From an uncultured bacterium (GTDB lineage: Bacteria; Verrucomicrobiota; Verrucomicrobiia; Verrucomicrobiales; DEV007): a DNA stretch of 64,000 nt. Made by a program: the position numbers and the translations under genes. Where the stretch lies: contig CAXBMO010000011.1 in NCBI GenBank assembly GCA_963977015.1, forward strand, positions 96,001 through 160,000, in the 5' to 3' direction. The notes beneath the pieces were generated by a model, which made no database searches, was not told where the DNA came from, and saw only the letters and a list, made by a program, of their open reading frames with translations. Below, piece by piece: positions 5,216 through 38,356 of the stretch; position 1 is the stretch's first letter, and each line of letters starts with the position of its first letter.

Positions 5216-5273
5216 TGTGGTTACATTTTGGCAAAGTGTAACCGATCATGGCACACCTTGGTCATACATTACA

Positions 5274-6941: not shown

Positions 6942-6942
6942 C

Positions 6943-8229: not shown

Positions 8230-8257
8230 TCGCAGGGAGGCTGGCTAGAGTTTCCGG

Positions 8258-9676: not shown

Positions 9677-9677
9677 G

Positions 9678-10508
9678 TTACGGCTTTGAGAGAGCAATCG
9701 GTTCGCCAATACGAGAAAGGTCGACCAGATATTTCGTTCCGGAGCGGTGTTCTCCAGAAGGGTTCTCAAGGACCAATTTTACGCGGGTTGTGCTGCTGGC
9801 CGCGTCGGTTACGGGACTGACAAACTCCAATTTGGCGAGGTATTCTCTGGTCCCGTTTGTCTTTTGAAGCGGCACGGTTTGGCCCGGTTTAAGGTGCTCG
9901 GCTGCTTGGTGAGGGACATGAAGAACGACGTTTAACTGATCAAGTTTCACCAGGGTGAGAACTGGCCCTTGTCCCGGTTGAACGTTCTCACCAACTTCGC
10001 GGTAGATTCGCGATACAATCCCATCAAACGGGCTTCTCAACGTGTGTCGTTCGATCTCTGCCGCAATTCGTTCAACCTGAATTGCCAGGCTGGCCTTCTC
10101 TTCTTTTGCTGCGATGAGTTCGGCGTTGGAGATCTCAAATTCGGCGTTGGCTCGGGCGACTTCATCTCGATTGGCACTACCGGATTTGGCCAAGCGTTCC
10201 AGTTCATCTTTGCGGCGTTTGCGAAGCTCCCAATTGGCCTGGGCCGACTGAATGGTAGATTGGCTTTCCGCTCTGATCTTGGCGATTCGCAACGATGCAT
10301 CGAGAACCTGGCTGTCCAATTTTCCAAGCAGTTCGCCCTCTCTTACGACCTGACCTTCTTGAGCCGGGATCGAGGCGATCACGCCGGATTCAGGAAATGC
10401 CATATCAACCTGGCGGATTGGTTCGGTCGTTCCAATGGTTGGGGTTTGCGCGACGGCAAACGGACTCAGGGTGAAGCTGAGAAGAAGCAGGGAGATTATA
10501 GGTTTCAT
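9678..10508 (-). CDS. Membrane fusion protein / RND-type periplasmic adaptor
   Basis: Signal peptide (MKPIISLLLLSF), lipoyl half-motifs (GQVVREGELLGKLD; LRSPFDGIV), helical hairpin and FVSPVTDAASST. Confidence 0.88.
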   Translation of the reverse strand: MKPIISLLLLSFTLSPFAVAQTPTIGTTEPIRQVDMAFPESGVIASIPAQEGQVVREGELLGKLDSQVLDASLRIAKIRAESQSTIQSAQANWELRKRRKDELERLAKSGSANRDEVARANAEFEISNAELIAAKEEKASLAIQVERIAAEIERHTLRSPFDGIVSRIYREVGENVQPGQGPVLTLVKLDQLNVVLHVPHQAAEHLKPGQTVPLQKTNGTREYLAKLEFVSPVTDAASSTTRVKLVLENPSGEHRSGTKYLVDLSRIGEPIALSKP

Positions 10509-10521
10509 CAATTGGGGGGGA

Positions 10522-12504
10522 TTAAGCGAGGCGGAGTTTGGTTTCGTCATTCCATCGATCTTGTTCCATGATGGCGAGCCGGTCCTGGTAGGCTTTTTGT
10601 TCGGCTTTGGATTGAACGCGAAGAAAACGCGAGGAGAGAGAGCTGGGAAGTTCCTCTGCAGAATCTTCGAACTTTTCAGCCATTCGTTTCGCAAGATCGG
10701 GTGCGAATCGAGTCATGATGGAGTCTTCCAGGGAAAGGAAAAGTTGTCCCGAGCCGACCTTGCCCTGACGGGCGGCACGACCCAGCAGTTGCCGGTCCAC
10801 GCGTTGGCTTTCGTCCATTTCCAACACGAGAACATGGAGCCCACCCAGAGCTTCGACCCCGTCACCCAGATCGATATGGGTTCCCCTTCCTGCCATGTTG
10901 GTGGAGATGGTAACGGCATGGGGTTGGCCCGCCGCGGCAATGACTTCTGCCTCGCCTTCATCTTGTTTCGCATTGAGCAAGTGATGAGGAATGCCTGCCT
11001 GATTCAGCAACAGGGAAAGGCGCTCGCTGTTTTCGATGGTTCGAGTACCAACGAGAACAGGTTGCCCCGTATGGTAGAGGCGCCTGATTTCAACAACCGC
11101 AGCGTTCAGCTTTTGCGAACTGGTTCGAAAGACGCGAGGCGGAAAGGTTCTTCGTTGGCTGGGTTTGTTGAGGGGGATGGGAACGACGGGGAGCTGATAC
11201 ACTTCCCAGAATTCTCCGGCGGCTTCGACGGCGGTTCCGGTCATCCCGCCAACGTGATCATACAGGCGGTAAAACTTCTGCCGTGAAATACTCGCCTGAG
11301 ACTCGTTTTCGCAGGTGATGGGTTGGTCTTCCTTGGCTTCGACTGCCTGATGAAGTCCATCTCGCCAACTGCTGCCCTGTTTGACCCGGCCGGTGCATTC
11401 ATCAATGATCAGAACCTCGTTGTTGCGAACGACGTACTGCCGATCTTTGTCCAAGGCGTATTGCGCGCGAAGGGCATTCTCCACATATTTGATCCAGGGG
11501 CGCTTGAGGAGGTTTCGGTCAACTTCCCGGCTTTGGGCCTGTGCTAGTTGCTGACCGGATTCAGTTAGCCAGATTTGTCGCTTTATCGCGTCAAACCCAA
11601 AGTGCAGACCTTCCTCCAACAGGGCAATGGTGTTTCGAGCTGCGTGATAGAGGCTGGTACCGGGATTTTCGCCGTGGGACTTGCCGCTGATGAGCAGCGG
11701 TGTGGTGGCCTCATCGATTAAGATGGCGTCTGCCTCATCAATGATGGCCATGTGGAGACCGCGTTGGGCAAGGGGGAGAGTGCGGGAATCAGAGCCCAGC
11801 AAGGATTTCCAAGTGCGCTCTCCGGGGACGGACTCAGGTTGACGGAGGAGGGTGAGTTGATCGCGAAGGTAATCGAACCCGAATTCAGATCCAGTCCCGT
11901 AGGTGATGTCTGCCTGATAAGCTACTCGCTTTTTCGCGACGGAAACCCTCTCCGGTAACAGGGCGGAGGAGATGCCGAGAGCCTGATATACAGGGAGTCC
12001 GAAGGCATGGTCTCGTTCGGCAAGATAGCTGTTGGCGGTCGCCACGTGAACTCCCTTTCCGGATAAAGAATGGTAGTAGGCCGGGAGCAGTTGGAGCAGG
12101 GTCTTGCCTTCCCCGGTTGCAAGTTCTGCAATCGTTCCCCTGGCCAAAGCCAGGGCACCGAGAATTTGCACATCATAGGGATAGAGACCGAGAATCCGGC
12201 GGCTCACTTCTCGCACCAGGGCGAAGCTGGGGACAAGCAGGTCCTCAAGGGGGCGCCCTGACTGAACCTCTTCACGGTGTTGCCTCGCGAGTGCAACTAT
12301 CGAATGAAGGTCTCTTCGCGCGAACTCGGGAGCGAGTTGGTTGATGGCGGAGAGATGTTCCTGATCAGATGGTTGTCGCGCCTTTCGGGGAGAGAGGGTG
12401 TGTGTTGCGTGAAAGGCTAAAAAAGGAGCGGGTGCGTATTGACGGCGAAGTGTTTCCCAAAATCCGGGAAGTGCGTTTCGAGAGGATGAAGGAGGACGTG
12501 CCAA
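10522..12504 (-). CDS. Secondary, C-terminally truncated SecA (SecA_DEAD-domain ATPase), 660 aa
   Basis: ELATGEGKT, DEADAILIDEATTPLLIS, GLHQAVEAKE, GMTGTA, TNMAGRGT and RQLLGRAARQG. The protein ends early in the helical scaffold. Confidence 0.92.
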   Translation of the reverse strand: MARPPSSSRNALPGFWETLRRQYAPAPFLAFHATHTLSPRKARQPSDQEHLSAINQLAPEFARRDLHSIVALARQHREEVQSGRPLEDLLVPSFALVREVSRRILGLYPYDVQILGALALARGTIAELATGEGKTLLQLLPAYYHSLSGKGVHVATANSYLAERDHAFGLPVYQALGISSALLPERVSVAKKRVAYQADITYGTGSEFGFDYLRDQLTLLRQPESVPGERTWKSLLGSDSRTLPLAQRGLHMAIIDEADAILIDEATTPLLISGKSHGENPGTSLYHAARNTIALLEEGLHFGFDAIKRQIWLTESGQQLAQAQSREVDRNLLKRPWIKYVENALRAQYALDKDRQYVVRNNEVLIIDECTGRVKQGSSWRDGLHQAVEAKEDQPITCENESQASISRQKFYRLYDHVGGMTGTAVEAAGEFWEVYQLPVVPIPLNKPSQRRTFPPRVFRTSSQKLNAAVVEIRRLYHTGQPVLVGTRTIENSERLSLLLNQAGIPHHLLNAKQDEGEAEVIAAAGQPHAVTISTNMAGRGTHIDLGDGVEALGGLHVLVLEMDESQRVDRQLLGRAARQGKVGSGQLFLSLEDSIMTRFAPDLAKRMAEKFEDSAEELPSSLSSRFLRVQSKAEQKAYQDRLAIMEQDRWNDETKLRLA

Positions 12505-12513
12505 GGTTCCGAA

Positions 12514-14394
12514 CTATTTGGATGTGGAATCAAGTCCTTTGACGATGCGAAGCTCCGGAAGACCGTCGGTGTCTTTCCCTTTTTCGAACTGGATGCCTTC
12601 ACCGCGAATCAGTGTGCCTTTTGCGCGCTCCAGGTTGGTGAGGGCAACGTTGTAAACGACCAGTGATTGGAGAAATTCTTCGCGGGCGATTTGCAGGCGA
12701 TCTTGCGCTTCCAGCAAGCTTCCCAGGTAGTCGCTGGTTAGGATGTTTCCGCCATCCGCATCAACTCCCCGCCGCCGGTTCAGAACGTTCAGGTCCTTTA
12801 GAGCTGCATTAGCCGAAATGTATTTGGCACGCATGTCAGGATAGGCAGTGGTGACCTCCCGATAGGCAACCTGAACTTCCAGTTGGATGGTTTCCAACGT
12901 TGCCTGAAGTCGCTGTTTCTGCTGTCGAAGCTCCAGCTCACTGCGGAGATGACGCGCACGGGTAAAGCGGCGTTCGAGTGAGACCGATGCGGAAAGGCCA
13001 ACAGACCAGGAAGGGTGTCCATCGTTGTATTCTCCACGGGTCGCACCTTCCCAGTCTCCGTCTGATTGCAGATCGGAGATGGAGCCTTCGCCAAAGATGT
13101 TGAGTTCTGGGAGGCGATCCTGCTTTGCCATTCGCTCGCGAATGTTGGCGGCTTTCAGTTGTGCTTCTGCCTGCAGGATCTCAGGACGATACTGCATGGC
13201 CGTCCCGACGGCGGTTTCGAAGTCGACCTCAAACGCAGCTGTTACCGGAAGGTCATCAGGAATCAGCTCGCCGATTCCCTGTTCGATCAAATTGGGATCA
13301 TTGATCAGTGCTCTCAGGCGGGATTCTGAATTCTTGATTGCCAGTTCAGCGCGAACCAACTCAGCTCTCCTTGAGGCGAGGGCCGCTTCGGCACGGGCTC
13401 GCTGGCTGGCCATGGTATCCAACTGTCCACGCTTTCTCATCTCTTCGACAATCGCCTCCGTCCCTTGCACGAGCCGGAATTTTTCCACATGAATGGCACG
13501 GGCGAGATAAAGTGACCAATAGGAGCGGTTCACTTCAGAAAGGTGGGTCTCCAGTTGGCGAAGGAATTCCTGGCTGCCGGTCTCGTGGTCGAGTTTGGCA
13601 ATCCGGATCACGCTTTCATTGTAACGAATTCCTGCGCCCCGAAGCAGTGGCTGCACGACCGTGAGTTTGAGGCGGGCTTTTCCTTGATCATTCGGGATGA
13701 AGAATTCGGAATTGTTCCGGGTCCGGGTCATTTCCTGGGAGAGACTGACCTGCGCTCCGGTCCGGAACCGTTTGCGGATTCCGCTTTCCCAACTCCACTC
13801 CCGCTGGCGAAAGAACTCCTCGTCTCCGCCGACTTCAAGCGAACTTCCAACAGGCTCATGAAGACGATCCAACCCGGTGGTGGTATAGAGTTCACCATCG
13901 AACGCGCCGCGAGCTTCGTTAATGCCGGTTTCGCGAATGACCGGAATGTTGCCGAAAACCTTGATCTGGGTGGAATTTGCCAGGGCTGTTTGGTAAACCG
14001 TATCAAGGTTCACCGCTGCGGGATGGGAATCGCCCAACAGTTGACCGCGAACATCGCTATACCACCATGAGTCCGGAGGAATGGCTCCGTTCTCAAAACC
14101 GCCGCCGGCGCGGGCTTGGCCTTCTTGGCTGAATTCGGTGAGAGCACTGTTTGCAAACGCTTTCTTGAGCAGGGAAATTTGATCAACGAGTTCTTTCTCA
14201 CGTTGTCCCTTGGGTTCATAAGGGGACACGTTCAACGCTTCAAGAAATGGTGACCGATTAAGGTCTTCGTTCTGGTCGTCACGGAGTTGCGCCAAAGATG
14301 AACACGTGCAGAGAACGCCAACAGCAAGACTCAGGAGGGGTGTTCGTAGTGCAAAACCTCGATGGTAGGAGAGGAGTGGTTTTGTAGCTTTCAT
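12514..14394 (-). CDS. TolC-family outer membrane efflux protein
   Basis: Signal peptide, two OEP-like repeats (QPLLRGAG; YRPEI; LPELNI) and C-terminal NLERAKGTL. Confidence 0.88.
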   Translation of the reverse strand: MKATKPLLSYHRGFALRTPLLSLAVGVLCTCSSLAQLRDDQNEDLNRSPFLEALNVSPYEPKGQREKELVDQISLLKKAFANSALTEFSQEGQARAGGGFENGAIPPDSWWYSDVRGQLLGDSHPAAVNLDTVYQTALANSTQIKVFGNIPVIRETGINEARGAFDGELYTTTGLDRLHEPVGSSLEVGGDEEFFRQREWSWESGIRKRFRTGAQVSLSQEMTRTRNNSEFFIPNDQGKARLKLTVVQPLLRGAGIRYNESVIRIAKLDHETGSQEFLRQLETHLSEVNRSYWSLYLARAIHVEKFRLVQGTEAIVEEMRKRGQLDTMASQRARAEAALASRRAELVRAELAIKNSESRLRALINDPNLIEQGIGELIPDDLPVTAAFEVDFETAVGTAMQYRPEILQAEAQLKAANIRERMAKQDRLPELNIFGEGSISDLQSDGDWEGATRGEYNDGHPSWSVGLSASVSLERRFTRARHLRSELELRQQKQRLQATLETIQLEVQVAYREVTTAYPDMRAKYISANAALKDLNVLNRRRGVDADGGNILTSDYLGSLLEAQDRLQIAREEFLQSLVVYNVALTNLERAKGTLIRGEGIQFEKGKDTDGLPELRIVKGLDSTSK

Positions 14395-14432
14395 GTGTGT
14401 GGGGGGAAAGTGGGGGGGATGGGAGGGGTGCG

Positions 14433-17400
14433 TTAACAGCCTGAGGTGAGCCCGGTGAGGCCGGACTGTGAAGCGAACTCATATCGATAGGAATTCCAGC
14501 ACAGCTGAATGATGGATTCGCTGGAGTTGTAGACTTGCAGGACCTGTTGTGCTGAGCGGAGCGTGAAAATGTCCTGCTGAGTGAGCTCTGATGTATAATA
14601 GGTTCCGCTGTTGTAGGTAGGACCAAAATAGGTCCGGAAGTTGTAGCCCGTAGTGTCCGAAGCATTGTGAACGGCTGCAGTCTGGCGCATCACAATGGTA
14701 TGAGGTGCTTCATCGATGGTGGCTGACTGGAAGGTAATGACCCAGTTTCCACCGGAGTCTGCCACGGTTTGCGAAGAACCAATAAGTTGCCCTTGTTGGT
14801 TATAGACTTCCAGCACAACGGTTGATCCGGGTTGGACCAAACCACTGTTCATGTGGTGTGCTATTGAGGTGGGCAACCGGAGGTGGAAGTGATCTCCTCC
14901 TCCAAAGTGTCGGCCCAAGCTGGAGAACCCCTTTTCTGAGAATCCATCTGCCAGGCGGGAATCAGCAAATGAATCATTGCCCAAATACCCACGTTGATTG
15001 TCTTCACCAAAAAGGAAGTTCTGGATGGTGTCGAACTGAAGTACGGGCCAGTCTTCGGATTCTGGCTCTTCCTCTTCGATGATGGGAACCGGTGTGATGA
15101 GAGTCGTGTCTGTGTCCCGGTTGTTTGCCGGGGATGGATCGGGACCTCCTGATCCATCGTCTTTGATCGTTACGGTGTTGAGGATGACTCCTGCGTTCCA
15201 GACGCGAACCGAAACCGTTACCGATCCCGACTGGCCGGGGGCGAGTTGCCCGAGGTTCCAGGTGACGTTGCTTCCACTGTATCGACCGCCGTCCGATGCC
15301 GCCAGGAACTCAACTCCCGTAGGCAATGTGTCCGTGAGGACCACGCCGCTGGAAATTTGGTTGCCAACGTTAGTGTAACTCAGAGTGTAAGTGAGCGTTT
15401 CGCCGACTTCAGCGGTGTCGCGTCCATCGGTTTTGGTCACCACCAGATCCGGGGACGCGATGACCGGAGTCTCTTCATCGTCGGTGTTGTTCGCAGGTGT
15501 CGGATCGATGTCGAGATGAGTGACGTTCGCGGTATTGGTAATGGACTCCAAGCCTGCAGGAATCACGGCAGGCGCGGCGAGGGAGATTGTCACTTCTACC
15601 GTATCACCAATGACAATGTCAGGAAGGGCGATGGTGATGATCCCCCCGGAAAGGGTGCCAACAGGGGATGAACCGATGGGAGTGAATCCATGCTGCAGAA
15701 ATTCAGAAATATCGTCCGTAATTTCGACTCCCAGGGCATCTGCCCGTCCTATATTGGTAATCGAAAGTGTGTAGGTGACGTCCCCGCTCGGTGAGAATGT
15801 GGCCCCTCCATCGTCTTTACTGATGCGAAGGTCGGGTTGAAACACCTCTACGGTTTCGGAATCGGTATCGTTATAGTCATTGAGCGCTCCGCCCGGATCA
15901 GCCGGATCCCCCGTGCGTTCGTCAGAATTGGTTCCCGCTGTTGAGGTCCATTCCAATTCGGCATTGTTGACAATAACACTGTCAAAATCGGAAGTTGAAG
16001 ACGTGACGGTCGCTTCGAATGTCAACTCCACGCTTTCCCCGATATCGAGGCGATTGAGGACAACAGCCAGGGCGGAAGCGGTGCTGTTGTTCGCGGTAAT
16101 GGTGGTCGGGTTGGCCGGCGCTCCCAGCACGGTCAGCTGAATCGAGGATGGATCGAGCACGAGCTCAGATGGAAGCGAGTCGAGAACATCAATATCGAAC
16201 GCATCCGCAGGAAAAAGGCCGCCGGTGTTCTCAATCGTCAGAGTGTAGGTGAGCGTTTCACCAAGCTTGGGTCTGAGGTTGTCGACCGTTTTCTGAATGT
16301 CAAGTTCGGGCTCGACAAGGCTGATGGAGACTTGGTCCTGATCCTGGGGTAGGGCGGCATCGTTGACGTCTTCAGCATCGACGGTTGCGTCATTGGTCAG
16401 CGTCGTGCCGCCCTGATTGGTGGCGACGTTCTCGACAATGGTCTGATAGGTGATGACGAAGGAATCATCTGAGCCGTTATTGGTGGAACTGTTCACCACG
16501 TCCCCGAGATCCAGGGTTAACAGCCCGGTGCCGGAGACCCAGGTTTCAGAAATGGCACCGATGGAGATGAGGGCGTTGCTCTGGCCTGCGTCAAGGGTGG
16601 CGGAACCGGTGACGTATCGCATTCCAGCAGGCAAGCGGTCCTGGAGAACGAGAGCTGGAGTTGTTCCCTCCATGATCGTAACCTCCAACTCAAAGGTGAC
16701 GGTTTCGCCCACCGCGTAGGTGGTTGATGCTCCCGATGGAAGCCGCTTGTCTAGTGAGAGTTCCTCAATGACAGTGGCTGTTGCTGCCGTTGCGGTATCG
16801 GTGTAATCGTTGGCCCCGGTCCCATCTCCATTCCTTTCTTCGGTGCTGGACCCATCCAAACTCGTCCATTGTACCGTGGCCTCATTTTGGATAACCTGGT
16901 TTGGTTCGACCGTATTGTTGAGGACTCCGGAAATGGCGATGGAAATGGATCGGCCAAGCGCGAGGTCGTAACCTCCGGAAACGGTTCTCAGCTCGTTGCC
17001 TACCAGTTCAAAGGATGTCTTGATGTTTCCGGCAACGGATTCCGTGATGGTAACGCCAGAGGAGAAGTCGACGGTCACGCCGGATGGGATGAGATCGCTG
17101 AACACCAGGTCTCTGGCGTCGGCCGTTGAAGCTCCCGTATGCTCGATGACGATGTTCCACGTGATGGCATCACCGGAATCCACGTTGGTGGTGGCACTTG
17201 TCAGGGTTTTGCTGACCGTGACGTCGGGCTCCACGATTTCAACATCCTCAAAATCGGAGAGCATTTGGGCTCCGATGTCGCTGTCGTAGTACAGTTGCCC
17301 GGTGTTTCGGATGACATCACCATCCTGGTTCTCCCCATCATTCACGACCAAAGCTTGAACGGTGATGATGACTTGAGAGTCCGTCACCGTGCCGCTCGTG

Positions 17401-23400: not shown

Positions 23401-25718
23401 ATGACAAAGCCGTTCGAGCTTGCAAAAGTCGCCAGATCGATCACGGGATCGAGGCCGGACAGACTTGGGTTGCCGGAATCATCGATTCCGCCATCTCCGG
23501 TATCATCAGGGCCCTGAGAGCCGTAGAAGGTATCTCCAGAACCGAAACTGATCCGGCCTGCTGTCGTATAAGCCGTTCCCGCATCAAAATCATAAACCTG
23601 GCTGTCGTCGATGCTTGAAGCATCGAAAATGGGAAGCGGTAGAAAGTCTTCCAGACGAAGGCTCTCAAACTCCGTGGTCGGCAGTTCATAGCTAATTCGG
23701 TAGCTCACCAAGTCTCCTGCACTGACATTGTAATCTACCGGGTTCAGTGTGGTGGTACCATGGGAGGTGATGGCGACGACTTCCTTGGAGACCGAACCTA
23801 CCGGAATGGAAACACTCGACGAGCTGCCGTCCGTAACGGTTTGATTGTGGCGGGTCAGGTCGTCGATATCCAGGTTTTCACCGCTGATGGTGACCGTGTT
23901 CGTCAGCTCATCTCCCTGGCTGATCTCTTGTTCACCAGGAACAACGGTGTGCGAGTTTCGAATCTGGACGCGGTAGGTAATGGTTCCTGTCGTGGCGCCT
24001 GCATTGAAAACGGAAGGGTCCACGGATCCCCCACTCAGGCCTCCTGATGGGACCAAGCCACCAAGGATGGGATCCCCACCAGAAATTAAGGTATGACTCG
24101 CCTGTAGCTGTGAGTAGACATCAAACTGAATACTGGTCGATCCATCGGCGTTTACGACCGAAGTGAAGTTTGCGGAGTCGAAGTCGACGGTGATGGTCTC
24201 TCCATGTTGGGTATAGGTTAGCTGAGGAATGATCTCGGATCCGTCAGTCACAAACCCGCCTCGCGCATCGCCGGGGAGGAAGTCTTGCCCATCTCCAAGT
24301 AGGTCGTCCACAACCAAGTCTTCAAATGCGAAATAGTCGGAGACCTGGAAATTTAGCGTGTATTCCAAGATGTCTTGAGGAGAGTTGCCAGCCGCATTGC
24401 GGTCGTCGATGTTTGCGACACCCTTCTGAATGGCCAGGGAATGTTCCTCGAGAACGTAATCCGTTTCCAGATTGCCGGTTACCCCATCCTGACTAGCTCC
24501 GGCGGGACCTTCGTTGTCTGAAACAGGATTGCCGTTCCAAAGCCCGGTAATTTGCGCGTCGTTGTAGGGAGAAATGTCCAGTTGCTCGCCTGTTTCCGGA
24601 TCGATGACGGCGGCACTACTTTCTCCGTCCGTGAAGGGAATGAAGGCTTCGTAGGTGATGGTAATGTCCGTGCCGCTGACCCCGGTGACGGATCCAAATG
24701 AAAGATCAAGCAGGTTGTCTGAAGCTGGGGTTCCCGTCAGGCCATCAGAGTTGATCAGCGGCTCATCATTCGTTGTAAACGCAAGCGGGTTTCCTCCCGA
24801 ATCGAGAACTTGAAGATTTCCGAGATAGGCCAGATCACCGGGAATCACATCAGTAAGGCTCAGGCCGTTCACCGTCTCCCCGGTTGCTACATCAATGCTG
24901 AGGGTATAGGTAACGGGATGGTTGGGGCCGGAAGCCAGTTCGCCAATGTAGGTGCCGTCTTCTTCCGGAACGGCAGCCGTTTTAGTGAGTTGCATCACCA
25001 TTGGCATGACGTCGGATGTGGCCGAAGCTCCAAAGATCGGAGCATCGTCCGGCGCGGCAACGGTTCCCGGATCGTTCAAGGCTGTATGACCCAGCGCGAA
25101 ACCACCCTGAGCCGTAATCCCATAAGACTGGTTTGGTACAATACCGTCAGCCGTATTGAGACTGGCATTAACCGTTAAGGAAAGAGCGGGATTATCCTGA
25201 GAATAGCTTCCAAACGGAAGTTCAACATTATAGACGTATTGACCAATCAGGCTGGGAGTGGTGACGACATCGTAGGTTACCGGAGTGGTTCCTGAGCCCG
25301 CTCCACCATAATATTCGTCGGGAGGAGTTCCAATGCTACTTTCGAACATTGGGTGATCGATGGGCACCGGAGAAGCTGACGAACCGATCTCGATGAGCTG
25401 GCCATCGTTGCCGATTTCACCGATCGGCTCGGTGGCGAGGCCGTCAGGATTGGTTTGCTCGGTCCCGGTCAGGTTGATGGAATTGATCTGGACTTCCGGT
25501 GGTGCGACAATGTCCACATAGGGAGCGAAACCGACCTGGTCTCCGGTATTGTCGAATTCAACGGTGAACTCGATATCATCATTGACCAACTGATCTTCAG
25601 CAACGGTTAGTGCTTCCGTGCTAACGGCAACCTCAGGAACGGCATCGAAGAGAATTCGAGGTTCCAAGGGTTCAAAATGGATATGGGTGGCCTTTTTGCC
25701 TTGTGAGTTTGTAGCCAT
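14433..25718 (-). CDS. Giant (3761 aa) extracellular protein: LEPR-XLL N-terminus plus about 20 DUF11/fimbrial isopeptide (CnaB-like) repeats
   Basis: N-terminal FEPLEPRILFDA; repeated (I/V)xK...GDxxTY...DxLP...L/VxNxA units; strongly Asp/Thr/Ser/Gly-rich; no hydrophobic signal peptide. Confidence 0.9.
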   Translation of the reverse strand: MATNSQGKKATHIHFEPLEPRILFDAVPEVAVSTEALTVAEDQLVNDDIEFTVEFDNTGDQVGFAPYVDIVAPPEVQINSINLTGTEQTNPDGLATEPIGEIGNDGQLIEIGSSASPVPIDHPMFESSIGTPPDEYYGGAGSGTTPVTYDVVTTPSLIGQYVYNVELPFGSYSQDNPALSLTVNASLNTADGIVPNQSYGITAQGGFALGHTALNDPGTVAAPDDAPIFGASATSDVMPMVMQLTKTAAVPEEDGTYIGELASGPNHPVTYTLSIDVATGETVNGLSLTDVIPGDLAYLGNLQVLDSGGNPLAFTTNDEPLINSDGLTGTPASDNLLDLSFGSVTGVSGTDITITYEAFIPFTDGESSAAVIDPETGEQLDISPYNDAQITGLWNGNPVSDNEGPAGASQDGVTGNLETDYVLEEHSLAIQKGVANIDDRNAAGNSPQDILEYTLNFQVSDYFAFEDLVVDDLLGDGQDFLPGDARGGFVTDGSEIIPQLTYTQHGETITVDFDSANFTSVVNADGSTSIQFDVYSQLQASHTLISGGDPILGGLVPSGGLSGGSVDPSVFNAGATTGTITYRVQIRNSHTVVPGEQEISQGDELTNTVTISGENLDIDDLTRHNQTVTDGSSSSVSIPVGSVSKEVVAITSHGTTTLNPVDYNVSAGDLVSYRISYELPTTEFESLRLEDFLPLPIFDASSIDDSQVYDFDAGTAYTTAGRISFGSGDTFYGSQGPDDTGDGGIDDSGNPSLSGLDPVIDLATFASSNGFVIEIGDYSLGANDAVSSTIEFIVTVEILDAEYADGLQFTNQVGASEANSFLSTASSSEMAQIILEEPELSITKGVVSTTHPTGVFDSTTGPAGTTFAAPGSASAFSGNAITSDALETQAINANLSAIDAGDLVTFVITVENTGNSSYGAFDVVINDTMPAGFIVPSSGAGLNLRVTDGNGTALTTSGDLFGAGLELTDPSAAQGSLTAYDGASGSNIAIIAYDLLVDSTATALETLTNTAEIVSYSHSEGGTDHADDGELVDTASVTTVAPILAKSVVSTSHNTAANSDSEAVIGEIITYEVTVTIPEGDLEQVEIVDLMDNGLAFVDFLGVTAVSGDLSSSLGALSSITAIVTDPGTTQNSGNTIELGFGSTPGLGTITNTNTDNATAETLTFQYRAVVLNHTGNSEGTRRNNDANLSWNVNGGTQTVDDQASNITIREADIDVSKVVSNANAMADETVTYEFTVTNNGSVEAYDIVLSDVLPEEINSATNLQYLSGVVPDSLTFTPGAPEGTISASWATLAVGESAVFSIDVTVDTGLDVNTTVTNTATATWTSLPGDPGVISTHNQYSIERSGDTSDPLFATQNDYSESNDAAFVVPNPQGDKAIIDTSEGHTSNDTSAAGQVNAVPGEIIRYEVTIDLPQGNMTNLSLVDTLEAGLQFLAPADNNVTVQLNGFDAGGGTYVAADLPANVHTSAQTLDPGQITVNGQIITFDFGQITNNETDSGSAESLTISYNVIVSNDDGTNVFRGNTLTNSAQVQVNGVDSGSPATIDANVVQPQVSISKSDNGASSADAGDVISYTLTITADSNINAATAYDLNITDTLPAELEIDGGSLTFSGLPGYVVTSSLGVVGQDITAFIDQLEAGDSFEITFDARVRDSGTDQIGAGQTVTNTANLTYSSLPGSGTADGSGDNATGSVAGASGDTDGERVYTDADSESFSSPDATISKVLATPADTTYTIGETVEYVLTITVPEGQTDNAVVVDALEAGMSYISGTLTVTAGAGITVTTAGPYDDTNNVFFTRTDPGTTSDEQLQLDFGTIEFNEGASGDGLATQTIEIRYSALVDNIASNQNNVVRSNIADLNWTDGSGAAQVSSDSTPDDDTDITIVEPDLSVTKSITNDVSGLDAGDTVTYQILVQHTGSSTADAFDLDLSDALPDGILENFTLVSATLDAADVSGSFNIDGSNDLVQTGNLDLAQGEVLTLTITGQVRDDANPSDAIANTANLTWSGIDGTDSGERDGSGGVNDYSDSDSANTSVQGVLDVTKSIPAGTTEVLVGDTITYQLEVSIAEGTLTNLSIVDTLPDGMTLDLGSVQISNINGMTVTDFAAAQVGQVLTITASSVLNPGNSDDSTTSDTDSFFITYDATASDDPVNVYNTAVLTNDADASADGVSDDNDNQVSVTVVEPVLEFEKTLTGADSGDAGDVFNYTFTINHDATSGADAMDVILTDTIPSGFQLVPGSINGTGATPDPDLTTISGTGTGLAGETITLRWETIPQSIDAANPYEVTMQFVMVDSITDLSSNIVNSATLNYDHDPDDGAGRSATPIVSAADPVDPDLAYAFTKSVISTSENGDLGGQGDPLLQDLVIGEEVTFELVATFGEGTTTDVVITDTLPFTASNGTANGVLELVSGTITSIGSGITSISSGLSVSDSGTVTGTSPDVIEFDFGDIVAEGNNADDSTITIRITARVANVVQNQTGDLLTNDGELSIYSGAQTFDDQASVEVFEPQIVAGVFIDSIPAEPDSGDTVSYEATITNPTQFSAYDSTYVSSLPTEIALQTGTFTAISNISGDVSASFTALTSGVTSNAPFTLAAGETITFTYDALLTGAVTDGSTYTNNVQVDWTSIDGANANERTGDDGQGGALDDYEANASVSFTTEVSDTFAFDKVFVSGDAAHTGITEGTSGTIPDLVIGEVVTYQLVATIGNGTTTNVSIVDQLDPTNGLLHIQSATVTGGSNLTSDQGIITGMSPSITDTDADTYDDRIVLNLGTITNTGTSGTVTDSQVIITVQALVVNDGENQDGDVIRNTGQLYYDSDIGAQMLSDFEDVEIVEPDVTVSKTLTSATTNVDSGDAITWNIVIEHTGASTADARDLVFSDLIPSGVTVDFSSGVTITESVAGNIKTSFELVGNELRTVSGGYDLALGRSISIAISGVLNNTVEPNQVIQNEATVQWTSLDGSSTEERNGDGTGANDYTDTATAATATVIEELSLDKRLPSGASTTYAVGETVTFELEVTIMEGTTPALVLQDRLPAGMRYVTGSATLDAGQSNALISIGAISETWVSGTGLLTLDLGDVVNSSTNNGSDDSFVITYQTIVENVATNQGGTTLTNDATVDAEDVNDAALPQDQDQVSISLVEPELDIQKTVDNLRPKLGETLTYTLTIENTGGLFPADAFDIDVLDSLPSELVLDPSSIQLTVLGAPANPTTITANNSTASALAVVLNRLDIGESVELTFEATVTSSTSDFDSVIVNNAELEWTSTAGTNSDERTGDPADPGGALNDYNDTDSETVEVFQPDLRISKDDGGATFSPSGDVTYTLSITNIGRADALGVEITDDISEFLQHGFTPIGSSPVGTLSGGIITIALPDIVIGDTVEVTISLAAPAVIPAGLESITNTANVTHLDIDPTPANNTDDEETPVIASPDLVVTKTDGRDTAEVGETLTYTLSYTNVGNQISSGVVLTDTLPTGVEFLAASDGGRYSGSNVTWNLGQLAPGQSGSVTVSVRVWNAGVILNTVTIKDDGSGGPDPSPANNRDTDTTLITPVPIIEEEEPESEDWPVLQFDTIQNFLFGEDNQRGYLGNDSFADSRLADGFSEKGFSSLGRHFGGGDHFHLRLPTSIAHHMNSGLVQPGSTVVLEVYNQQGQLIGSSQTVADSGGNWVITFQSATIDEAPHTIVMRQTAAVHNASDTTGYNFRTYFGPTYNSGTYYTSELTQQDIFTLRSAQQVLQVYNSSESIIQLCWNSYRYEFASQSGLTGLTSGC

Positions 25719-25744
25719 CTGAGGAGGGGGGAATCAGAAGTCAA

Positions 25745-25825
25745 CTATTGGGTAGTTGAGTCTTTTAATAAATATTATAAATATAATAAAACAATATGAA
25801 ATATTAAGATATTAGTGATCTAAAG
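25745..25825 (-). promoter_or_regulatory. Extremely AT-rich intergenic segment, probable promoter region of the giant-protein/TolC/SecA/MFP genes
   Basis: ttttaataaatattataaatataataaaacaatatgaaatattaagatatta lies directly upstream of ATG 25718 in otherwise GC-rich DNA. Confidence 0.55.
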
Positions 25826-25853
25826 GAACGGAGACTATATCGGGGCGCGATAC

Positions 25854-28064
25854 TTACTGGACTCTGGTCTCTGCTCTCCTCATCGAGCGGCCAATCGAAT
25901 TCCGAAGCAGTTCCCATAGAGTTTGTGGGATACCTGCATAAATTCTAACGTAGCCAATTTCACCGGTTTCGACTCGTTGGCTCGAGGTGGGGCTCAAATT
26001 GGCAACGGCCTCAAAATGAGGGGCTACCAGCTCGAATTGCCGCGCAAAGATATCGCCGGGATGTTCGGTCTTGATCGCATCCTCGTCGGAACTGGAGGCC
26101 AGAATTTTGCGGGCGACCAAAGGGCCGCCTGATGGGGTCACCAGTCCAAAGTGAGGTATCTGAGTGGAAGCATGAGGGTTCACTCGGGTGAGTTCTGCCG
26201 GAATTCGAGTAATACGCCCGCGAGCGAGAAAGGTTGCGGCTTTGCTCTTGCTATCTTGAAGGCGCATGGCGATTTCTTCCGGCAATGCCATGACGAGCTG
26301 TTTGGTCTCTGCCCGTCCAATGCTACACAGGAGCTGTCCTTTATCGAGATAGGTCCCTTTCAGATTGGCCAGGTCCCTGCCGCTGACGATACCATCACAG
26401 GGAGCCGTCAGGAACAAGGTGTCGACATACCTTTCCAGTTCAATCAGTTGTGTTCTCAGCGTGTTGAGCTGCTTTGATTCGGCTTGATATGCAGAAATAT
26501 TTTCAGACTGAAGATGGCGATCAGCAAGAATGGTGGATCGTTCAACGCTGAGACGAAGTTGCTCCAAACGAGCCTCTTCGTTTGAATTACGGAGTTTGGC
26601 CAACGGTTCACCTTCTTTGACATAGCTGCTGTTGGTGACAAGGAGCTCGTGAACAAAGCCGGGGCATTCCACGCGAACTTCACCATCATTCTTCCAAACG
26701 ACAACGGCGGGAACCTTCACGCTCGGAGTGATTTGGACAAGAGTGAATACCGCACCTATTCCACAGGCAATCAGGGCGATTCGAGCGTAAAATCCAGCCC
26801 TGGATACACCTTCGCTTCGTGCGCGTTTCTGAAGGTATTTTCGAACACTTTGGAGGAATGATAGGATTGTGGCGAGCCCAATCACAATGGCGATGAGAAG
26901 GCCTGTGCCATCCCATTGGCGGCTGAGGAGAGTGAGGATTCCAATGAGAACAATCCCTCTCCAGAAAAATGCAGCAAGGCCATAGATCGTGATCCACCAG
27001 CTACGGTCTTTTTCGGGAACTGGGTGATGATTGGGATCTGCCCCCAGGAGATAGCGTCTGAACCAGAAATTCGCGGAAGATTGGGCTTTCGCATAAAGAT
27101 TGGGAACTCCGGTCAAGTCGGCCAGAATATAGTAGCCATCAAAACGCATCAACGGATTGGCGTTGAACAGAATCGTCGTGACGCTGGAGATGACGATGGC
27201 TTCGTGCAATCCGCGACTCAGCATTCCGGGAGAAAGCTGAGACCAGACAATGGCTGCGATCCCGGCAAGGAAGAGTTCGCCATACATGCCGGCAGCACTG
27301 ACGAAAATGCGATTCCACTTGGAAGGAAACTTAACGGATGACGATGCGTTTACATAACCCAACGGGGTAATGAACATAAACATGACCACGCCCATTTCGG
27401 GCACACTCCCTCCAAATCGCTTGCAAACCAAGGCATGACAGCCTTCATGAAAAATTTTGATGACCACCCAGATGACGGTCAAGAGGAGGAGGTTCCCAAC
27501 TGCAAACATGCCCGCCGTTTCTTCCCGAAAGCGAGTCCAGTGATTGTTGACGGAAACGGCGCCCGCGATGAGAACCGCTATCCAGATGAGAAAGAACCGC
27601 TTGGATACCAACCAGCCGAAGAAGGGCGAGATCCAATCCAGGAAACGGTCAGGGTTGCCCAGGGGAATTCGCCAAAAGACGATGCTTCGACTTTGTTGCA
27701 CGAGTTTTTGGGCGTCCTGTTGGCGGTGATTCTCATCGCGTACCCGGTCGGCATGGACATTCCCGCCGCCCTCAAGTAATCCGGAGTCGGCCAGGGATCG
27801 CACGAGCGTCGTGGCAGCTTGCTCGGAGAGGGCATCGGCCTGTGCCTGAACGGAAAGTTTCCCCACCAATTCAGAGACCGTGGAACTTCCGTCCAACATC
27901 TGGAGGAAGTGATGTTCGATGTGCCCAATACTAAAATAGGTTCCAGCCAGGGGATCCTCCAAAACAAAGTTCCCGTCTTGTCGATAGATCTGGAGATCAT
28001 CGCGAAGCTTGGGCCGCAACGCGGATAGTTCGCGAGTGGATAGATTGGCTTCGGATCGCATCAT
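25854..28064 (-). CDS. PqqD/RRE-like domain + M50 (site-2) zinc peptidase + HlyD-type membrane fusion domain
   Basis: HEGCH (HExxH, 27435-27449) and NANPLMRFDGYY in a multi-TM region; N-terminal LEDP...LDGSSTVSEL...LADSGLL; C-terminal lipoyl/hairpin (VKEGEPLAKL; LTAPCDG). Confidence 0.88.
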   Translation of the reverse strand: MMRSEANLSTRELSALRPKLRDDLQIYRQDGNFVLEDPLAGTYFSIGHIEHHFLQMLDGSSTVSELVGKLSVQAQADALSEQAATTLVRSLADSGLLEGGGNVHADRVRDENHRQQDAQKLVQQSRSIVFWRIPLGNPDRFLDWISPFFGWLVSKRFFLIWIAVLIAGAVSVNNHWTRFREETAGMFAVGNLLLLTVIWVVIKIFHEGCHALVCKRFGGSVPEMGVVMFMFITPLGYVNASSSVKFPSKWNRIFVSAAGMYGELFLAGIAAIVWSQLSPGMLSRGLHEAIVISSVTTILFNANPLMRFDGYYILADLTGVPNLYAKAQSSANFWFRRYLLGADPNHHPVPEKDRSWWITIYGLAAFFWRGIVLIGILTLLSRQWDGTGLLIAIVIGLATILSFLQSVRKYLQKRARSEGVSRAGFYARIALIACGIGAVFTLVQITPSVKVPAVVVWKNDGEVRVECPGFVHELLVTNSSYVKEGEPLAKLRNSNEEARLEQLRLSVERSTILADRHLQSENISAYQAESKQLNTLRTQLIELERYVDTLFLTAPCDGIVSGRDLANLKGTYLDKGQLLCSIGRAETKQLVMALPEEIAMRLQDSKSKAATFLARGRITRIPAELTRVNPHASTQIPHFGLVTPSGGPLVARKILASSSDEDAIKTEHPGDIFARQFELVAPHFEAVANLSPTSSQRVETGEIGYVRIYAGIPQTLWELLRNSIGRSMRRAETRVQ

Positions 28065-28067
28065 CGC

Positions 28068-29918
28068 TTAGGGAAGTTGACGAAGTAGCCAGTTGGTTGG
28101 TGCACGGAGAATGGTCCAAACCGCGGGACGCCAGGGACCATGAATGGTGGCGCGCCCAATTCCTCCGGGGCGAAGGGATTCTTCCGGGTTGGCGATGGTT
28201 GCCTGGCAGACAAACACGTTTTCGCCGTTGCGAAACTCGGAATGGGGGGAAACAAGCGTCAAGTTGGCCTTCCACGTTTTCCCCGGATGAGAGTCAAATC
28301 TCATGGTTACCGATGCGTTGTCCCTGATGAGTGCAATGTCAGACTCCTCGACGGCGATCTCGGCCTGCATCGAATCCAGGGATCCGATTTCAAACAGGCG
28401 CTCGCCGAGTCGAATGATGGCTCCTTCATTTCTTTTGAGGTCGCCGCGTAACACGCGCCCCTCGATTGGAGATTTAATCTGAAGGTTTTCCTGGCGATAA
28501 GTAAGAACGTTGGCCGTTTCGGCTAAGCTGTCGGCTTCGAGTCGAGCCATTTGGGATTCAGCAATTTGGCCGGAACTCATGGCGGCATCCGCCTGTTTCT
28601 CAGCTCGAAGTCGACGGGCGTTGGCGTCGGCCAATTGCCACCGAATTTCACGATCATCCAGGTCCGCAAGCAGTTGTCCGGTTTGGACGACTTCTCCGGG
28701 TTCAACGTGTGCCTTCCGAAGAATGCCATCAAAAGGGGCGGAAACGATTCTTCGGACGGTGGGTTGTAATGTAACCGGGGCATCGACCGGGATCGGGATC
28801 GGAGCGGCCGCGAAGGCGCCCAGACAAATGAGCAAGCTCACGACAAAGCGTCTTTGGTTCGACTTTGCTCGTCCCCACATGCGATGGAGTCGACCGGTCA
28901 TCGCTCCTGGCTTGCCTTTGTGCAGAAGGTGAAGTTGCGGACCTATCAGGTGTTGAGCGGTTTTGAGAAACCGCATCAGTTCCGGAAGCCCTTCCGGCTT
29001 CTTCTTCCAAAGGAACAACCATGCGCCGACAACCCGGTCGTTGTAATAGAGGGGCGCGCACCAATAGTGTTGAGAGGTTGAGTTCCCAAGAAGGGATTGA
29101 ATCTCGGAAGACGCGAGAAAGACGGCGTTGTCAGTCGAATCCAGTTCCCGCTTTCCGTGCACGGTTTCGGTAAGGAGCGCCTGGATCGCGGTTCCCCCTG
29201 CACTCTTCAAAGGAGAATCGCTCTGCATTCCGGAAACGGCCTGTAGCTTGACGTTGCCCGTCTGCTGAGTCGTCGCCAATGCGACGCGGTCACACTTTGC
29301 CAGAACTTGAAGGATATCGACCAATTGAGTGGCTGCGGTGGGGAAATCACTGGCGCAGCCCGTTTTTTCCATGGCCTCGAAAAGTCCGCCAATACGTTGG
29401 GCGGCGAGATTCTCAACCTGGTGCCTCACTTCATCTTCGAGCGCATAGAAGAGCAAGGCGAACCACTGCAGGGTTGCCAATTCTCCTGTCCGCTCAATGC
29501 CGTCGTCATAAGGCATAACCAGACAAAGTCCGTAGTCGATTTTACCTTGTTGTAAGATCGGGACGGTGATGAACGCCAGCGGGGTGTCCTGGACCTCAAA
29601 GTAGTCCGTGCGAGCCTTGCGCTCTTGGCGGCTGAGCATTCCGGTGTGCCAAACACAGGAGATGAGATCCTCCTCCGTGGGACCTTCGGCGAGCGTTATG
29701 GTGGGGGTCGTTTCGTCGCGGAAATCAACCTGGTATGCCCCAATCGCGCGAAAGAGGTGCTTGATGAGGGAAAGCCCGGTTTGACCGCGGAGATGAAAAG
29801 GTAGCTTCGAGATCGACGATATCGCCTCATGCGCACTGGAGTGGCTCAATACCGAACGCTGCGCCAGTCTTTCGGTGGGGATACCCGTTGATCGAGGCTG
29901 CGAGGACGTCATGGTCAT
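28068..29918 (-). CDS. GAF-like domain(s) + HlyD-type membrane fusion protein
   Basis: GAF-like segments (CDRVALA; CAPLYYNDRVVGAW), one TM, then VSAPFDGIL...VEPGEVVQTGQLLA and IKSPIEG. Confidence 0.8.
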   Translation of the reverse strand: MTMTSSQPRSTGIPTERLAQRSVLSHSSAHEAISSISKLPFHLRGQTGLSLIKHLFRAIGAYQVDFRDETTPTITLAEGPTEEDLISCVWHTGMLSRQERKARTDYFEVQDTPLAFITVPILQQGKIDYGLCLVMPYDDGIERTGELATLQWFALLFYALEDEVRHQVENLAAQRIGGLFEAMEKTGCASDFPTAATQLVDILQVLAKCDRVALATTQQTGNVKLQAVSGMQSDSPLKSAGGTAIQALLTETVHGKRELDSTDNAVFLASSEIQSLLGNSTSQHYWCAPLYYNDRVVGAWLFLWKKKPEGLPELMRFLKTAQHLIGPQLHLLHKGKPGAMTGRLHRMWGRAKSNQRRFVVSLLICLGAFAAAPIPIPVDAPVTLQPTVRRIVSAPFDGILRKAHVEPGEVVQTGQLLADLDDREIRWQLADANARRLRAEKQADAAMSSGQIAESQMARLEADSLAETANVLTYRQENLQIKSPIEGRVLRGDLKRNEGAIIRLGERLFEIGSLDSMQAEIAVEESDIALIRDNASVTMRFDSHPGKTWKANLTLVSPHSEFRNGENVFVCQATIANPEESLRPGGIGRATIHGPWRPAVWTILRAPTNWLLRQLP

Positions 29919-34389: not shown

Positions 34390-34481
34390 GGGGAGGGAGG
34401 AGTGGGCCTGTTAGTTAGGATGTTCGTTAGTCTGTGGGCGTAGGTTCCTTTGAGAAACTGCTGGCTGCCTGAGTGGAGATT

Positions 34482-36035: not shown

Positions 36036-36059
36036 GTGTTTCTAGGTTCTGAGGTAACT

Positions 36060-36121
36060 TTCTAAGCTTTCCTTATAATTTCCATAATTTCAATATGTTT
36101 TTATCCGGGATTTATGGTAAT
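36060..36121. promoter_or_regulatory. Divergent promoter region with motif copy 2 (36073-36088) and an inverted partial copy (36112-36121)
   Basis: TTCTAAGC at 36060-36067, TTATAATTTCCATAAT at 36073-36088 and TTATGGTAAT at 36112-36121, between divergent tolC-like and ABC genes. Confidence 0.5.
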
Positions 36122-36129
36122 CTTCACCA

Positions 36130-38334: not shown

Positions 38335-38356
38335 ACTTCAATTTTTGATACTGACG

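Follow-up and report, generated by a model that had tools for sequence, protein, structure and literature searches.

How do bacteria of the Planctomycetota-Verrucomicrobiota-Chlamydiota (PVC) group and their relatives place proteins of several thousand residues on their surface? The question is raised by a six-gene module in a stretch of DNA from an uncultured bacterium of the Verrucomicrobiales (NCBI GenBank assembly GCA_963977015.1, contig CAXBMO010000011.1, positions 96,001 to 160,000), which we refer to at its full length of 64,000 nucleotides (nt) as the window. The module occupies positions 9678-29918 of the window and encodes three membrane fusion proteins (MFPs, or adaptors), a TolC-like channel, a SecA-like ATPase and a giant protein of 3761 amino acids (aa) that carries an N-terminal LEPR-XLL tag. 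Modules of this kind were published in 2015 as a genomic curiosity. We propose, with a probability of roughly 55% on the sequence evidence, that the module is a dedicated exporter for LEPR-XLL-tagged proteins that works independently of ATP-binding cassette (ABC) transporters, its cargo here being the 3761-aa isopeptide/DUF11 fiber protein.

Composition of the module and of related loci

All six genes lie on the minus strand. Two of the adaptors are fusions, one with a GAF domain and one with a domain that resembles the recognition element (RRE) of ribosomally synthesized and post-translationally modified peptide (RiPP) enzymes followed by an M50 (site-2-protease-type) membrane domain. In the order of the genes from the GAF adaptor onward, the module consists of:

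28068-29918, minus strand: GAF adaptor (GAF-MFP), 616 aa, HlyD_3 E 1.4e-20, HlyD_D23 E 1.1e-17
25854-28064, minus strand: RRE-M50 adaptor (RRE-M50-MFP), 736 aa, with an RRE/PqqD-like domain, a site-2-protease-type membrane domain and a periplasmic adaptor
14433-25718, minus strand: giant LEPR-XLL protein and candidate cargo, 3761 aa, a single unbroken open reading frame (ORF), repetitive and fiber/adhesin-like
12514-14394, minus strand: TolC-like outer-membrane channel, 626 aa, OEP E 4.1e-23
10522-12504, minus strand: SecA-like ATPase, 660 aa, with nucleotide-binding domain (NBD) 1, PPXD and NBD2, ending within the first scaffold helix
9678-10508, minus strand: small periplasmic adaptor, about 276 aa from the Met at 10508 (ORF 9678-10694)

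The intergenic distances in this order are 3, 135, 38, 9 and 13 nt, the last of which depends on the start of the small adaptor. An earlier note on this DNA had described six co-oriented genes with these domains, separated by 3-38 nt except upstream of the giant gene, as well as three different MFPs with no ABC or resistance-nodulation-division (RND) transporter of their own. This description holds in full: all genes lie at these coordinates on the minus strand, the gaps are 3, 38, 9 and 13 nt vs 135 nt upstream of the giant gene, and Pfam and NCBIfam scans agree that there is no ABC or RND domain within 9678-29918. The module thus lacks the dedicated ABC transporter of a classical type I secretion system (T1SS). 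Its adaptors also stay below the cut-off of the type I adaptor family TIGR01843 (44, 18.5 and 28.5 bits vs 208.65), despite the presence of Pfam-level HlyD_3 and OEP domains in the module.

The GAF adaptor is predicted from hydropathy to have about 357 cytoplasmic residues, including the GAF domain, one transmembrane segment (358-376) and a periplasmic HlyD-type adaptor part (about 380-600). The GAF domain itself is weak in the window protein (E 6.1e-4, 20.8 bits vs a cut-off of 22.4); homologs in the related loci L064 and L070 reach E 1e-10. Neighbors of the protein in the protein atlas are clusters of GAF plus adaptor proteins, which we take as a lead only, and Pfam at E<=1 assigns no family to the first 190 aa. 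The small adaptor matches RND_mfp (TIGR01730, 143 bits, cut-off 94.9) and HlyD_3 (E 1.4e-17), and its likely start is the Met at 10508, which precedes a signal-peptide-like stretch by hydropathy. By the same measure, the TolC-like protein has a signal-peptide-like N-terminus; it scores 47.9 bits with TIGR01844, below the cut-off of 225.15, and its residues 1-230 have no Pfam family at E<=1.

Relatives of the M50 adaptor were collected with an alignment of 22 sequences, which retrieved 591 relatives in contigs from one genome per species. Of these, we retained the best 80 loci together with flanking sequence of up to 10 kb per side, and their ORFs of at least 80 aa were searched with the window proteins by phmmer at E<=1e-5. 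The matches were distributed as follows:

GAF adaptor: 73 of 80 loci, 36 of the 39 loci of at least 19 kb
Small adaptor: 48 of 80 loci, 26 of the 39 long loci
TolC-like channel: 34 of 80 loci, 19 of the 39 long loci
SecA-like ATPase: 30 of 80 loci plus 2 divergent ones (L064 and L070, confirmed by Pfam), 18 of the 39 long loci
ABC ATPase match: 3 of 80 loci, 3 of the 39 long loci, all of stand-alone size (251-276 aa)

The same gene set recurs in loci of other species, and the arrangement is therefore not due to chance. GAF adaptor homologs stand directly upstream of the M50 adaptor in 73 of the 80 loci. The gene order varies, with TolC, SecA, small adaptor, GAF, M50 in many Pirellulaceae and TolC, small adaptor, GAF, M50, SecA in other groups. 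Such variation is better explained by selection for keeping the genes together than by inherited synteny alone. The earlier note had suggested a co-occurrence analysis of whether the module is found without any ABC gene, and the answer is that it commonly is: apart from the three stand-alone ATPases listed above, the loci hold no ABC ATPase match, and none of the 80 has a T1SS-type ABC transporter within 10 kb. Pfam scans likewise found no ABC or RND domain in the 102 ORFs of eight loci that lack a strong SecA-like match, L064 and L070 included.

The SecA-like ATPase is clearly matched by SecA_DEAD (E 7.6e-89), PPXD (E 1.8e-25) and P-loop_SecA (E 7.2e-52), and has no Pfam match to the SecA wing/scaffold. 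The alignment to Bacillus subtilis SecA chains, which have 778-844 aa, covers residues 47-600. The C-terminal third is missing, and with it the wing domain, the two-helix finger and the C-terminal tail. In the structure of SecA, the two-helix finger enters SecY, and finger and wing domain are the parts that engage SecY. The ATPase motifs GEGKT, DEAD, NMAGRGT and GRAARQG, which cover Walker A, DEAD and motifs V and VI, are intact in the window protein, and 31 of 33 aligned SecA-like proteins (the window protein and its homologs from the loci) keep GEGK[TS] and DExD. The C-terminal ends of all 33 coincide to within 0-6 residues. The truncation is therefore a design of the family and not the mark of a broken gene, and on the same ground of a uniform end point we rejected a reading of the gene as a truncated pseudogene. 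A SecA2/SecY2 accessory system was rejected as well: the protein stays below all NCBIfam equivalog cut-offs for SecA (TIGR00963, 591.6 vs 800 bits) and SecA2 (TIGR03714, 516.3 vs 930 bits; TIGR04221, 421.3 vs 725 bits), the wing/scaffold is gone, and SecY2/Asp genes are absent. Like the SecA2 proteins of Gram-positive bacteria and mycobacteria, the module protein would be a second SecA paralog for a subset of exported proteins; unlike them, it lacks the wing/scaffold and SecY2/Asp and has adaptors and TolC as its partners. In two gammaproteobacterial loci the SecA position is taken by a SecA_DEAD protein that has diverged strongly (L064:11817-13994, Pfam E 6.6e-12; L070:12149-14074, Pfam E 4.9e-29).

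The statement in the earlier note that secondary SecA_DEAD proteins occur with T1SS-related genes proved right (Kamneva, Poudel and Ward, 2015, PLoS One, PMC4452313), and we found no mechanistic study in the literature searched. That paper describes a conserved locus of SecA_DEAD, GAF-HlyD, M50-HlyD and HlyD genes, with or without OEP and with no ABC gene, in Planctomycetes, Verrucomicrobia and Proteobacteria, and reports the loss of wing and scaffold in SecA_DEAD as well as split arrangements. One carrier named in it is Methylorubrum extorquens AM1 (operon META1p2399-2402). The window module belongs to this type, with the same four core proteins, the optional OEP and no ABC gene: its SecA_DEAD protein is devoid of wing and scaffold, and its neighbors are GAF-HlyD, M50-HlyD and small HlyD/biotin-lipoyl proteins. 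It differs from the locus as presented there in that the cargo candidate and TolC sit between the M50 adaptor and the SecA-like gene. The authors hypothesized that SecA_DEAD is the ATPase, that the M50 protein serves as membrane component and possible pore, and that the GAF protein may be regulatory. Thus, a SecA motor acting with the M50 protein had already been put forward as a hypothesis. The paper names no cargo, and the words 'cargo', 'adhesin' and 'PqqD' each occur zero times in it; recurrent neighbors in its S2 Table are M50, HlyD, GAF, SapC and one hypothetical family (NOG277429), SapC and NOG277429 being found in Proteobacteria. No paper that ties LEPR-XLL proteins to the module was found in the full-text literature searched. 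Two points appear to be new here, judged from sequences and structure models: the conserved association of the module with LEPR-XLL-tagged candidate cargo, and a leader-binding fold that resembles an RRE.

The LEPR-XLL tag and its putative receptor

The sequence elements that bear on the proposed link between cargo and machine are:

25635-25682, minus strand: LEPR-XLL tag, residues 13-28 of the giant protein, core L18-E19-P20-R21-I22-L23-F24-D25-A26
14436-15185, minus strand: conserved C-terminal region of the cargo, last 130-250 aa, no known family
27780-28016, minus strand: RRE-like (PqqD-like) beta3-alpha3 domain, about residues 17-95 of the M50 adaptor, from AlphaFold2 (AF2) and Foldseek
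27435-27449, minus strand: zinc-binding HExxH motif, HEGCH, residues 206-210 of the M50 adaptor
27135-27164, minus strand: second site-2-protease motif NxxPxxxxDG, NANPLMRFDG, residues 301-310 of the M50 adaptor, invariant in 22 of 22 aligned proteins

First, we focus on the cargo candidate. DUF11 matches the giant protein in nine stretches (E 4.7e-84) and the isopeptide-forming domain TIGR04226 in ten (343 bits), and bMG10 is present too; this build suggests a covalently stabilized surface fiber or adhesin. An N-terminal hydrophobic segment or Sec signal peptide is missing, and Pfam and NCBIfam detect neither RTX nor T1SS-target families in the protein at E<=0.01. T1SS signals are poorly defined by sequence. 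Its N-terminus scores 21.9 bits with the LEPR-XLL model NF012209 at residues 14-26, above the cut-off of 17, and a six-frame search of the 64-kb window with the LEPR motif pattern gives a single match, in the giant protein itself. A homolog search with the 60-residue N-terminus, in which E-values were scaled to 5.8 billion sequences, gave one match.

Large ORFs next to the module in the related loci share the N-terminal motif x-L-x-F-E-x-L-E-x-R-x-L-F-[DS]-A-x-P. A simple LEPR pattern matched within the first 150 aa of 24 of 4113 ORFs, vs one match in 396,885 other residues. With one position relaxed, the motif is found in 25 ORFs from 24 of the 80 loci, 18 of which are among the 39 loci that span at least 19 kb; for 20 of these 25 ORFs a module gene is no more than 600 bp away. 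Among genes directly neighboring the module 19 of 148 are tagged, vs 5 of 375 other non-module genes (odds ratio 10.9; Fisher p 1.7e-7, a value that overstates the evidence because the loci are not independent). The cut-off of NF012209 is reached by 13 of the 25 tagged N-termini and by none of 14 control N-termini of other large ORFs; Pirellulaceae variants of the form LE[ED]R.LFDA lie beyond the reach of this model. Across 26 aligned N-termini no sequence deviates at E19 or R21, and at least 90% agree at L18 and L23. The carriers belong to Verrucomicrobiales, Pirellulaceae, Planctomycetaceae, the cultured Stieleria marina (L056), Victivallales and Syntrophus. What the module neighbors have in common in these sequences seems to be the tag and not a giant size. 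The enrichment of tagged genes next to the module makes the giant LEPR-XLL protein a plausible cargo.

The tag also occurs on smaller proteins of 214-628 aa (L077:15869-17755, L052:1344-2216, L057:19564-20208 and L060:14264-15058), of which the one with 628 aa has a peptidyl-prolyl isomerase domain and the others span 214-290 aa.

The opposite end of the cargo is conserved as well. BLASTP relates it to the C-termini of large module-adjacent proteins in a Pseudomonadota metagenome-assembled genome (MAG; L016, 5e-30), two Desulfobacterota-type MAGs (L048, 6e-22; L031, 7e-20), Chthoniobacter (L022, 3e-19) and Saprospiraceae (L019, 1e-13). These proteins are encoded directly upstream of TolC, the order seen in the window, in L016, L031 and L048 and directly upstream of the GAF adaptor in L019 and L022. 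All 11 database proteins with the cargo C-terminal region also bear the LEPR motif at residues 13-24, a co-occurrence that is partly inherited, as the 11 are orthologue-like Verrucomicrobial proteins. Within the cargo family the extreme C-terminal tail (window 14433-14510; P0129-P0139) follows the conserved pattern D/C-W-N ... Y-E-F ... G-L ... S-G and belongs to no known family. For the C-terminus of the window protein, Pfam at E<=1 gave only a weak Ig-like match (Big_8, E 0.021) and the protein atlas no usable match.

The M50 adaptor has at least 1258 homologs, the closest of which are from Verrucomicrobiales (61% and 53% identity). Together with the PSCyt2/PSD1, DUF1501 and sulfatase genes that flank the module, these homologs indicate a PVC bacterium, probably of the Verrucomicrobiota. 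Its AF2 model (mean predicted local distance difference test score, pLDDT, 80.3) comprises a cytoplasmic beta3-alpha3 N-terminal domain, a helical membrane domain with at least six transmembrane helices and a beta-hairpin at 224-238, and a C-terminal adaptor with an alpha-hairpin (H494-519 and H523-548). Foldseek with the whole model returned adaptor structures only (MacA, MexA, AcrA; E down to 3.7e-14). In sequence space, the membrane domain matches Peptidase_M50 (PF02163) at E 1.6e-4 with 21.5 bits, under the gathering cut-off of 27.2, which several homologs pass (e.g., 44.5 bits in L012 and 36.1 in L008); it further matches the NCBIfam family daptide_HExxH (E 2.1e-47, 162 bits, cut-off 300) and the YydH/LiaK family (E 1e-9). 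H206, E207 and H210 show no substitution in any of the 22 aligned M50 adaptors, and HExxH is intact in 77 of 78 homologs. The NxxPxxxxDG motif served as the search pattern for the 80 loci, so that its conservation there is circular.

The N-terminal domain was also modeled alone from 78 sequences (AF2, pLDDT 76.9, core about 90), with the secondary structure E17-21, E24-29, E34-38, H40-47, H55-66 and H73-85. Its PDB matches of rank 1-7 in Foldseek are all RRE domains solved with leader peptides (E 3.1e-5 to 1e-3), with TbiB1 as the best (5v1u; E 3.1e-5, template modeling score 0.67-0.70) and lasso-peptide B1 (6jx3) and PbtF (8t19) among the others; PqqD (5sxy) ranks ninth. A sequence-profile search of the PDB puts PqqD 5sxy first, weakly (E 0.026), and the Pfam PqqD match stays below its cut-off (E 0.009, 16.7 bits vs 23.4). 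A predicted complex of residues 1-125 of the adaptor with residues 1-60 of the LEPR-XLL protein scored 0.27, the mark being 0.32; controls were not run, and the value counts neither for nor against binding.

Because of the RRE-like leader-binding domain and the intact catalytic motif (77 of 78), the M50 adaptor, as far as sequences and models can tell, fits the role of a tag receptor and peptidase better than that of a passive pore. This modifies the hybrid export machine envisaged in the earlier note, in which SecA supplied the energy, the M50 protein the inner-membrane component and a mixed MFP/TolC conduit the way out. The ABC-free module and the giant LEPR-XLL protein as a plausible cargo are supported by the comparative data; an energy supply by SecA, a single duct of the three adaptors and an inner-membrane passage through the M50 domain are putative. 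The leader receptor and peptidase proposed here also departs from the possible pore of PMC4452313.

In loci of Thiotrichales/Beggiatoa type, the M50 adaptor occurs within 10 kb of no GAF adaptor, SecA-like ATPase, small adaptor or TolC (L012, L013, L032) or with the GAF adaptor and no other module gene (L038). In L012, it follows a chemotaxis operon and precedes a TamB-like protein of 1552 aa. These M50 adaptors may reflect a different use of the same fusion.

A possible export route and competing explanations

How might such a module move its cargo? We infer a sequence of steps, each of which is less certain than the general statement that the module is an exporter. The cytoplasmic RRE-like domain of the M50 adaptor would bind the LEPR-XLL tag in the way RiPP enzymes bind leaders. 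The SecA-like ATPase, which retains both nucleotide-binding domains and the PPXD without the SecY-engaging parts, might dock on the cytoplasmic domains of the M50 adaptor, the GAF adaptor or both, and feed the unfolded chain. The site-2-protease-type domain would cut off the tag, a role like that of the C39 peptidase in bacteriocin ABC exporters, and the periplasmic parts of the three adaptors would form, together with the dedicated TolC-like channel, one duct across the periplasm and the outer membrane. The GAF domain might gate or regulate export. That these steps make up a distinct pathway, in which a leader of about 16 residues is read by the RRE and cut by the site-2-type protease, and a SecA-derived motor that no longer fits SecY drives the unfolded chain N-terminus first through the three-adaptor/TolC duct, is a tentative proposal that we consider possible, though less likely than not. 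If it were true, a large class of giant surface proteins of Planctomycetota, Verrucomicrobiota and several further phyla would use LEPR-XLL as a general secretion signal. If the more general exporter reading is true, a relative of SecA, and not an ABC transporter, would power a TolC-dependent protein exporter, and the widespread annotation 'LEPR-XLL domain-containing protein' would gain a function. Tag and leader-binding fold together make the vague idea of a hybrid machine directly testable.

The proposed route combines features of several known systems. With the classical T1SS (HlyB-HlyD-TolC; LapB-LapC-LapE) the module shares an adaptor and a TolC-type channel and very large repetitive surface proteins without a Sec signal peptide; it differs in having no ABC transporter, three adaptors instead of one, a SecA-derived ATPase and an intramembrane metalloprotease, and a cargo with a conserved N-terminal tag and no match to an RTX or C-terminal T1SS family. 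In the peptidase-containing ABC transporters (PCATs) for bacteriocins, the leader is recognized and cut by a C39 cysteine peptidase built into the exporter. The proposed logic of a cargo leader that is read and cut by an exporter-borne protease would be analogous, whereas the module has a site-2-type metalloprotease and an RRE, a separate SecA-like motor and a cargo that can exceed 3000 aa. RiPP proteins (TbiB1, PqqD, and the daptide and YydH/LiaK HExxH proteases) offer an RRE-like fold and a related membrane HExxH domain; the module protein scores below their cut-offs and, unlike them, is fused to a periplasmic adaptor and linked with TolC, a SecA-like ATPase and large proteins. SecA motor domains without scaffold and wing have also been tied to giant proteins in Omnitrophota and Actinobacteria: a preprint describes SecA_DEAD/PPXD fused into giant proteins of these groups, near type II secretion genes, and proposes that the fused domains help to export their own giant protein (West-Roberts et al., 10.1101/2023.11.21.568195). 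In the module, unlike the giants described there, an adaptor/TolC operon encodes the ATPase as a protein of its own, 660 aa long.

Several observations weigh against a dedicated exporter. The 80 loci are phylogenetically non-independent, and the counts from them rest on crude ORF calls and heuristic score thresholds. Of the 39 long loci, 21 have no strong SecA-like match within 10 kb (19 to 21 depending on the criterion, L064 having the divergent SecA_DEAD protein); at least three of these SecA-less long loci cannot be judged, as a giant gene runs past the locus end, which the window's own giant gene would do as well. In the alignment, the Walker A and DEAD motifs are missing from the SecA-like proteins of L064 and L070, which may be inactive ATPases or locally misaligned. 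Tagged genes were seen in just 24 of the 80 loci. A dedicated protein-conducting channel of the inner membrane was not identified among the module genes, and no site-2 protease is known to conduct proteins. Later mechanistic work on the module was not found in the full-text literature searched. Finally, a complete classical T1SS adjoins the module 0.4 kb upstream, in window 30361-39589, and a Vibrio LEPR-XLL protein with C-terminal RTX and serralysin domains has been reported, which suggests that some LEPR-XLL proteins use a classical T1SS. The T1SS genes of the window are:

30361-34389, minus strand: cadherin/Big_9 adhesin-like protein, 1342 aa, with BapA/LapF-type matches
34482-36035, minus strand: T1SS TolC
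36130-38334, plus strand, divergent: LssB-type ABC transporter with a C39-like N-terminus (TIGR03375, 802 bits, cut-off 693)
38177-39589, plus strand: T1SS HlyD (TIGR01843, 350 bits)

The last two points form the basis of an alternative in which the neighboring LssB/HlyD/TolC system exports the giant protein C-terminus first and the SecA-like module acts on the N-terminus only, by tag processing, retention or regulated release. The control of LapA by LapD/LapG is a loose analog of such N-terminal retention and release. The conserved C-terminal region and tail of the cargo family would suit this arrangement, as would the GAF sensor domain of the module. On the other hand, the giant protein has no RTX or T1SS-target family match at E<=0.01, the related loci lack a T1SS-type ABC transporter and offer three small stand-alone ATPases at most, and a TolC and three adaptors of its own would be superfluous for a mere processing system. 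The adjacent T1SS, moreover, has its own candidate substrate in the cadherin-like 1342-aa protein, and it looks specific to the window, given that no T1SS-type ABC adjoins the module in the 80 loci compared. We therefore regard this arrangement as unlikely. A two-step export is a further alternative, in which the SecA-like ATPase works with the housekeeping SecYEG to bring the cargo into the periplasm and the adaptors and TolC carry out the outer-membrane step only. SecA2-only systems do work with the housekeeping SecYEG, the ATPase is clearly SecA-derived with its PPXD kept, the Sec-type signal peptides on the small adaptor and TolC indicate a machine assembled by Sec, and the missing inner-membrane channel gene would find an explanation. 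This has to be set against a cargo without a hydrophobic signal peptide, an ATPase without the wing domain and two-helix finger for SecY engagement, and the finding of no SecY, SecE or SecG paralog in the window, all of which make SecYEG-dependent export quite unlikely in our view.

The similarity of the RRE fold and the HExxH protease to RiPP maturation proteins (the daptide_HExxH score of 162 bits, the YydH/LiaK match and the Foldseek ranking given above) also permits the view that the module exports or matures a small, RiPP- or bacteriocin-like peptide and that giant neighbors are incidental. The small size of some tagged neighbors (214-290 aa) and the many loci without a large neighbor are in line with it. 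Tagged genes, mostly above 1000 aa, are nevertheless enriched directly beside the module, a small-peptide ORF with the motif was not found in the window, and a SecA-type motor with a PPXD would be suited to long unfolded chains, so that a small-peptide function is improbable. Least credible is a signaling device of regulated intramembrane proteolysis, built from the GAF sensor and the site-2 protease, that exports nothing. GAF and M50 domains are typical of signaling, and a regulatory role of the GAF protein is suggested in PMC4452313; against this, three adaptor domains, TolC and the SecA-like ATPase are conserved together, and no conserved anti-sigma/sigma factor pair was seen in the eight loci inspected. 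The chance of a purely signaling function thus appears very small. We retain the dedicated exporter for LEPR-XLL-tagged proteins as the preferred reading.

Spacer, promoters and neighboring genes

Further features of the window, one within the module and two beyond the T1SS genes, are:

25719-25853, minus strand: AT-rich spacer of 135 nt, 5' of the giant gene, in a surrounding region of 55% G+C
39586-40998, minus strand: MBOAT acyltransferase
41001-42488, minus strand: 495-aa protein, no family match

The spacer contains a single sigma-70-like match (25807-25780, minus strand) and is a possible internal promoter or regulatory region, which could separate expression of the cargo from that of the machine genes. 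Promoter-like and terminator-like sites in 9000-28900 are not more frequent than in shuffled sequences (8 seen vs 9.1 expected and 16 vs 20.1, respectively), and the 442-nt gap upstream of the GAF adaptor gene holds no convincing small ORF.

At a greater distance, a minus-strand gene (window 52150-54954) encodes a 934-aa protein with an N-terminal TIR_2 domain (E 3.1e-19) and a remainder without a family. On the other side of the module, genes for a PSCyt2/PSD1 protein, a DUF1501 protein and a sulfatase stand in series in window 4674-9676, a gene set typical of Planctomycetota and Verrucomicrobiota, and the sulfatase gene ends 1 nt from the convergent gene of the small adaptor.

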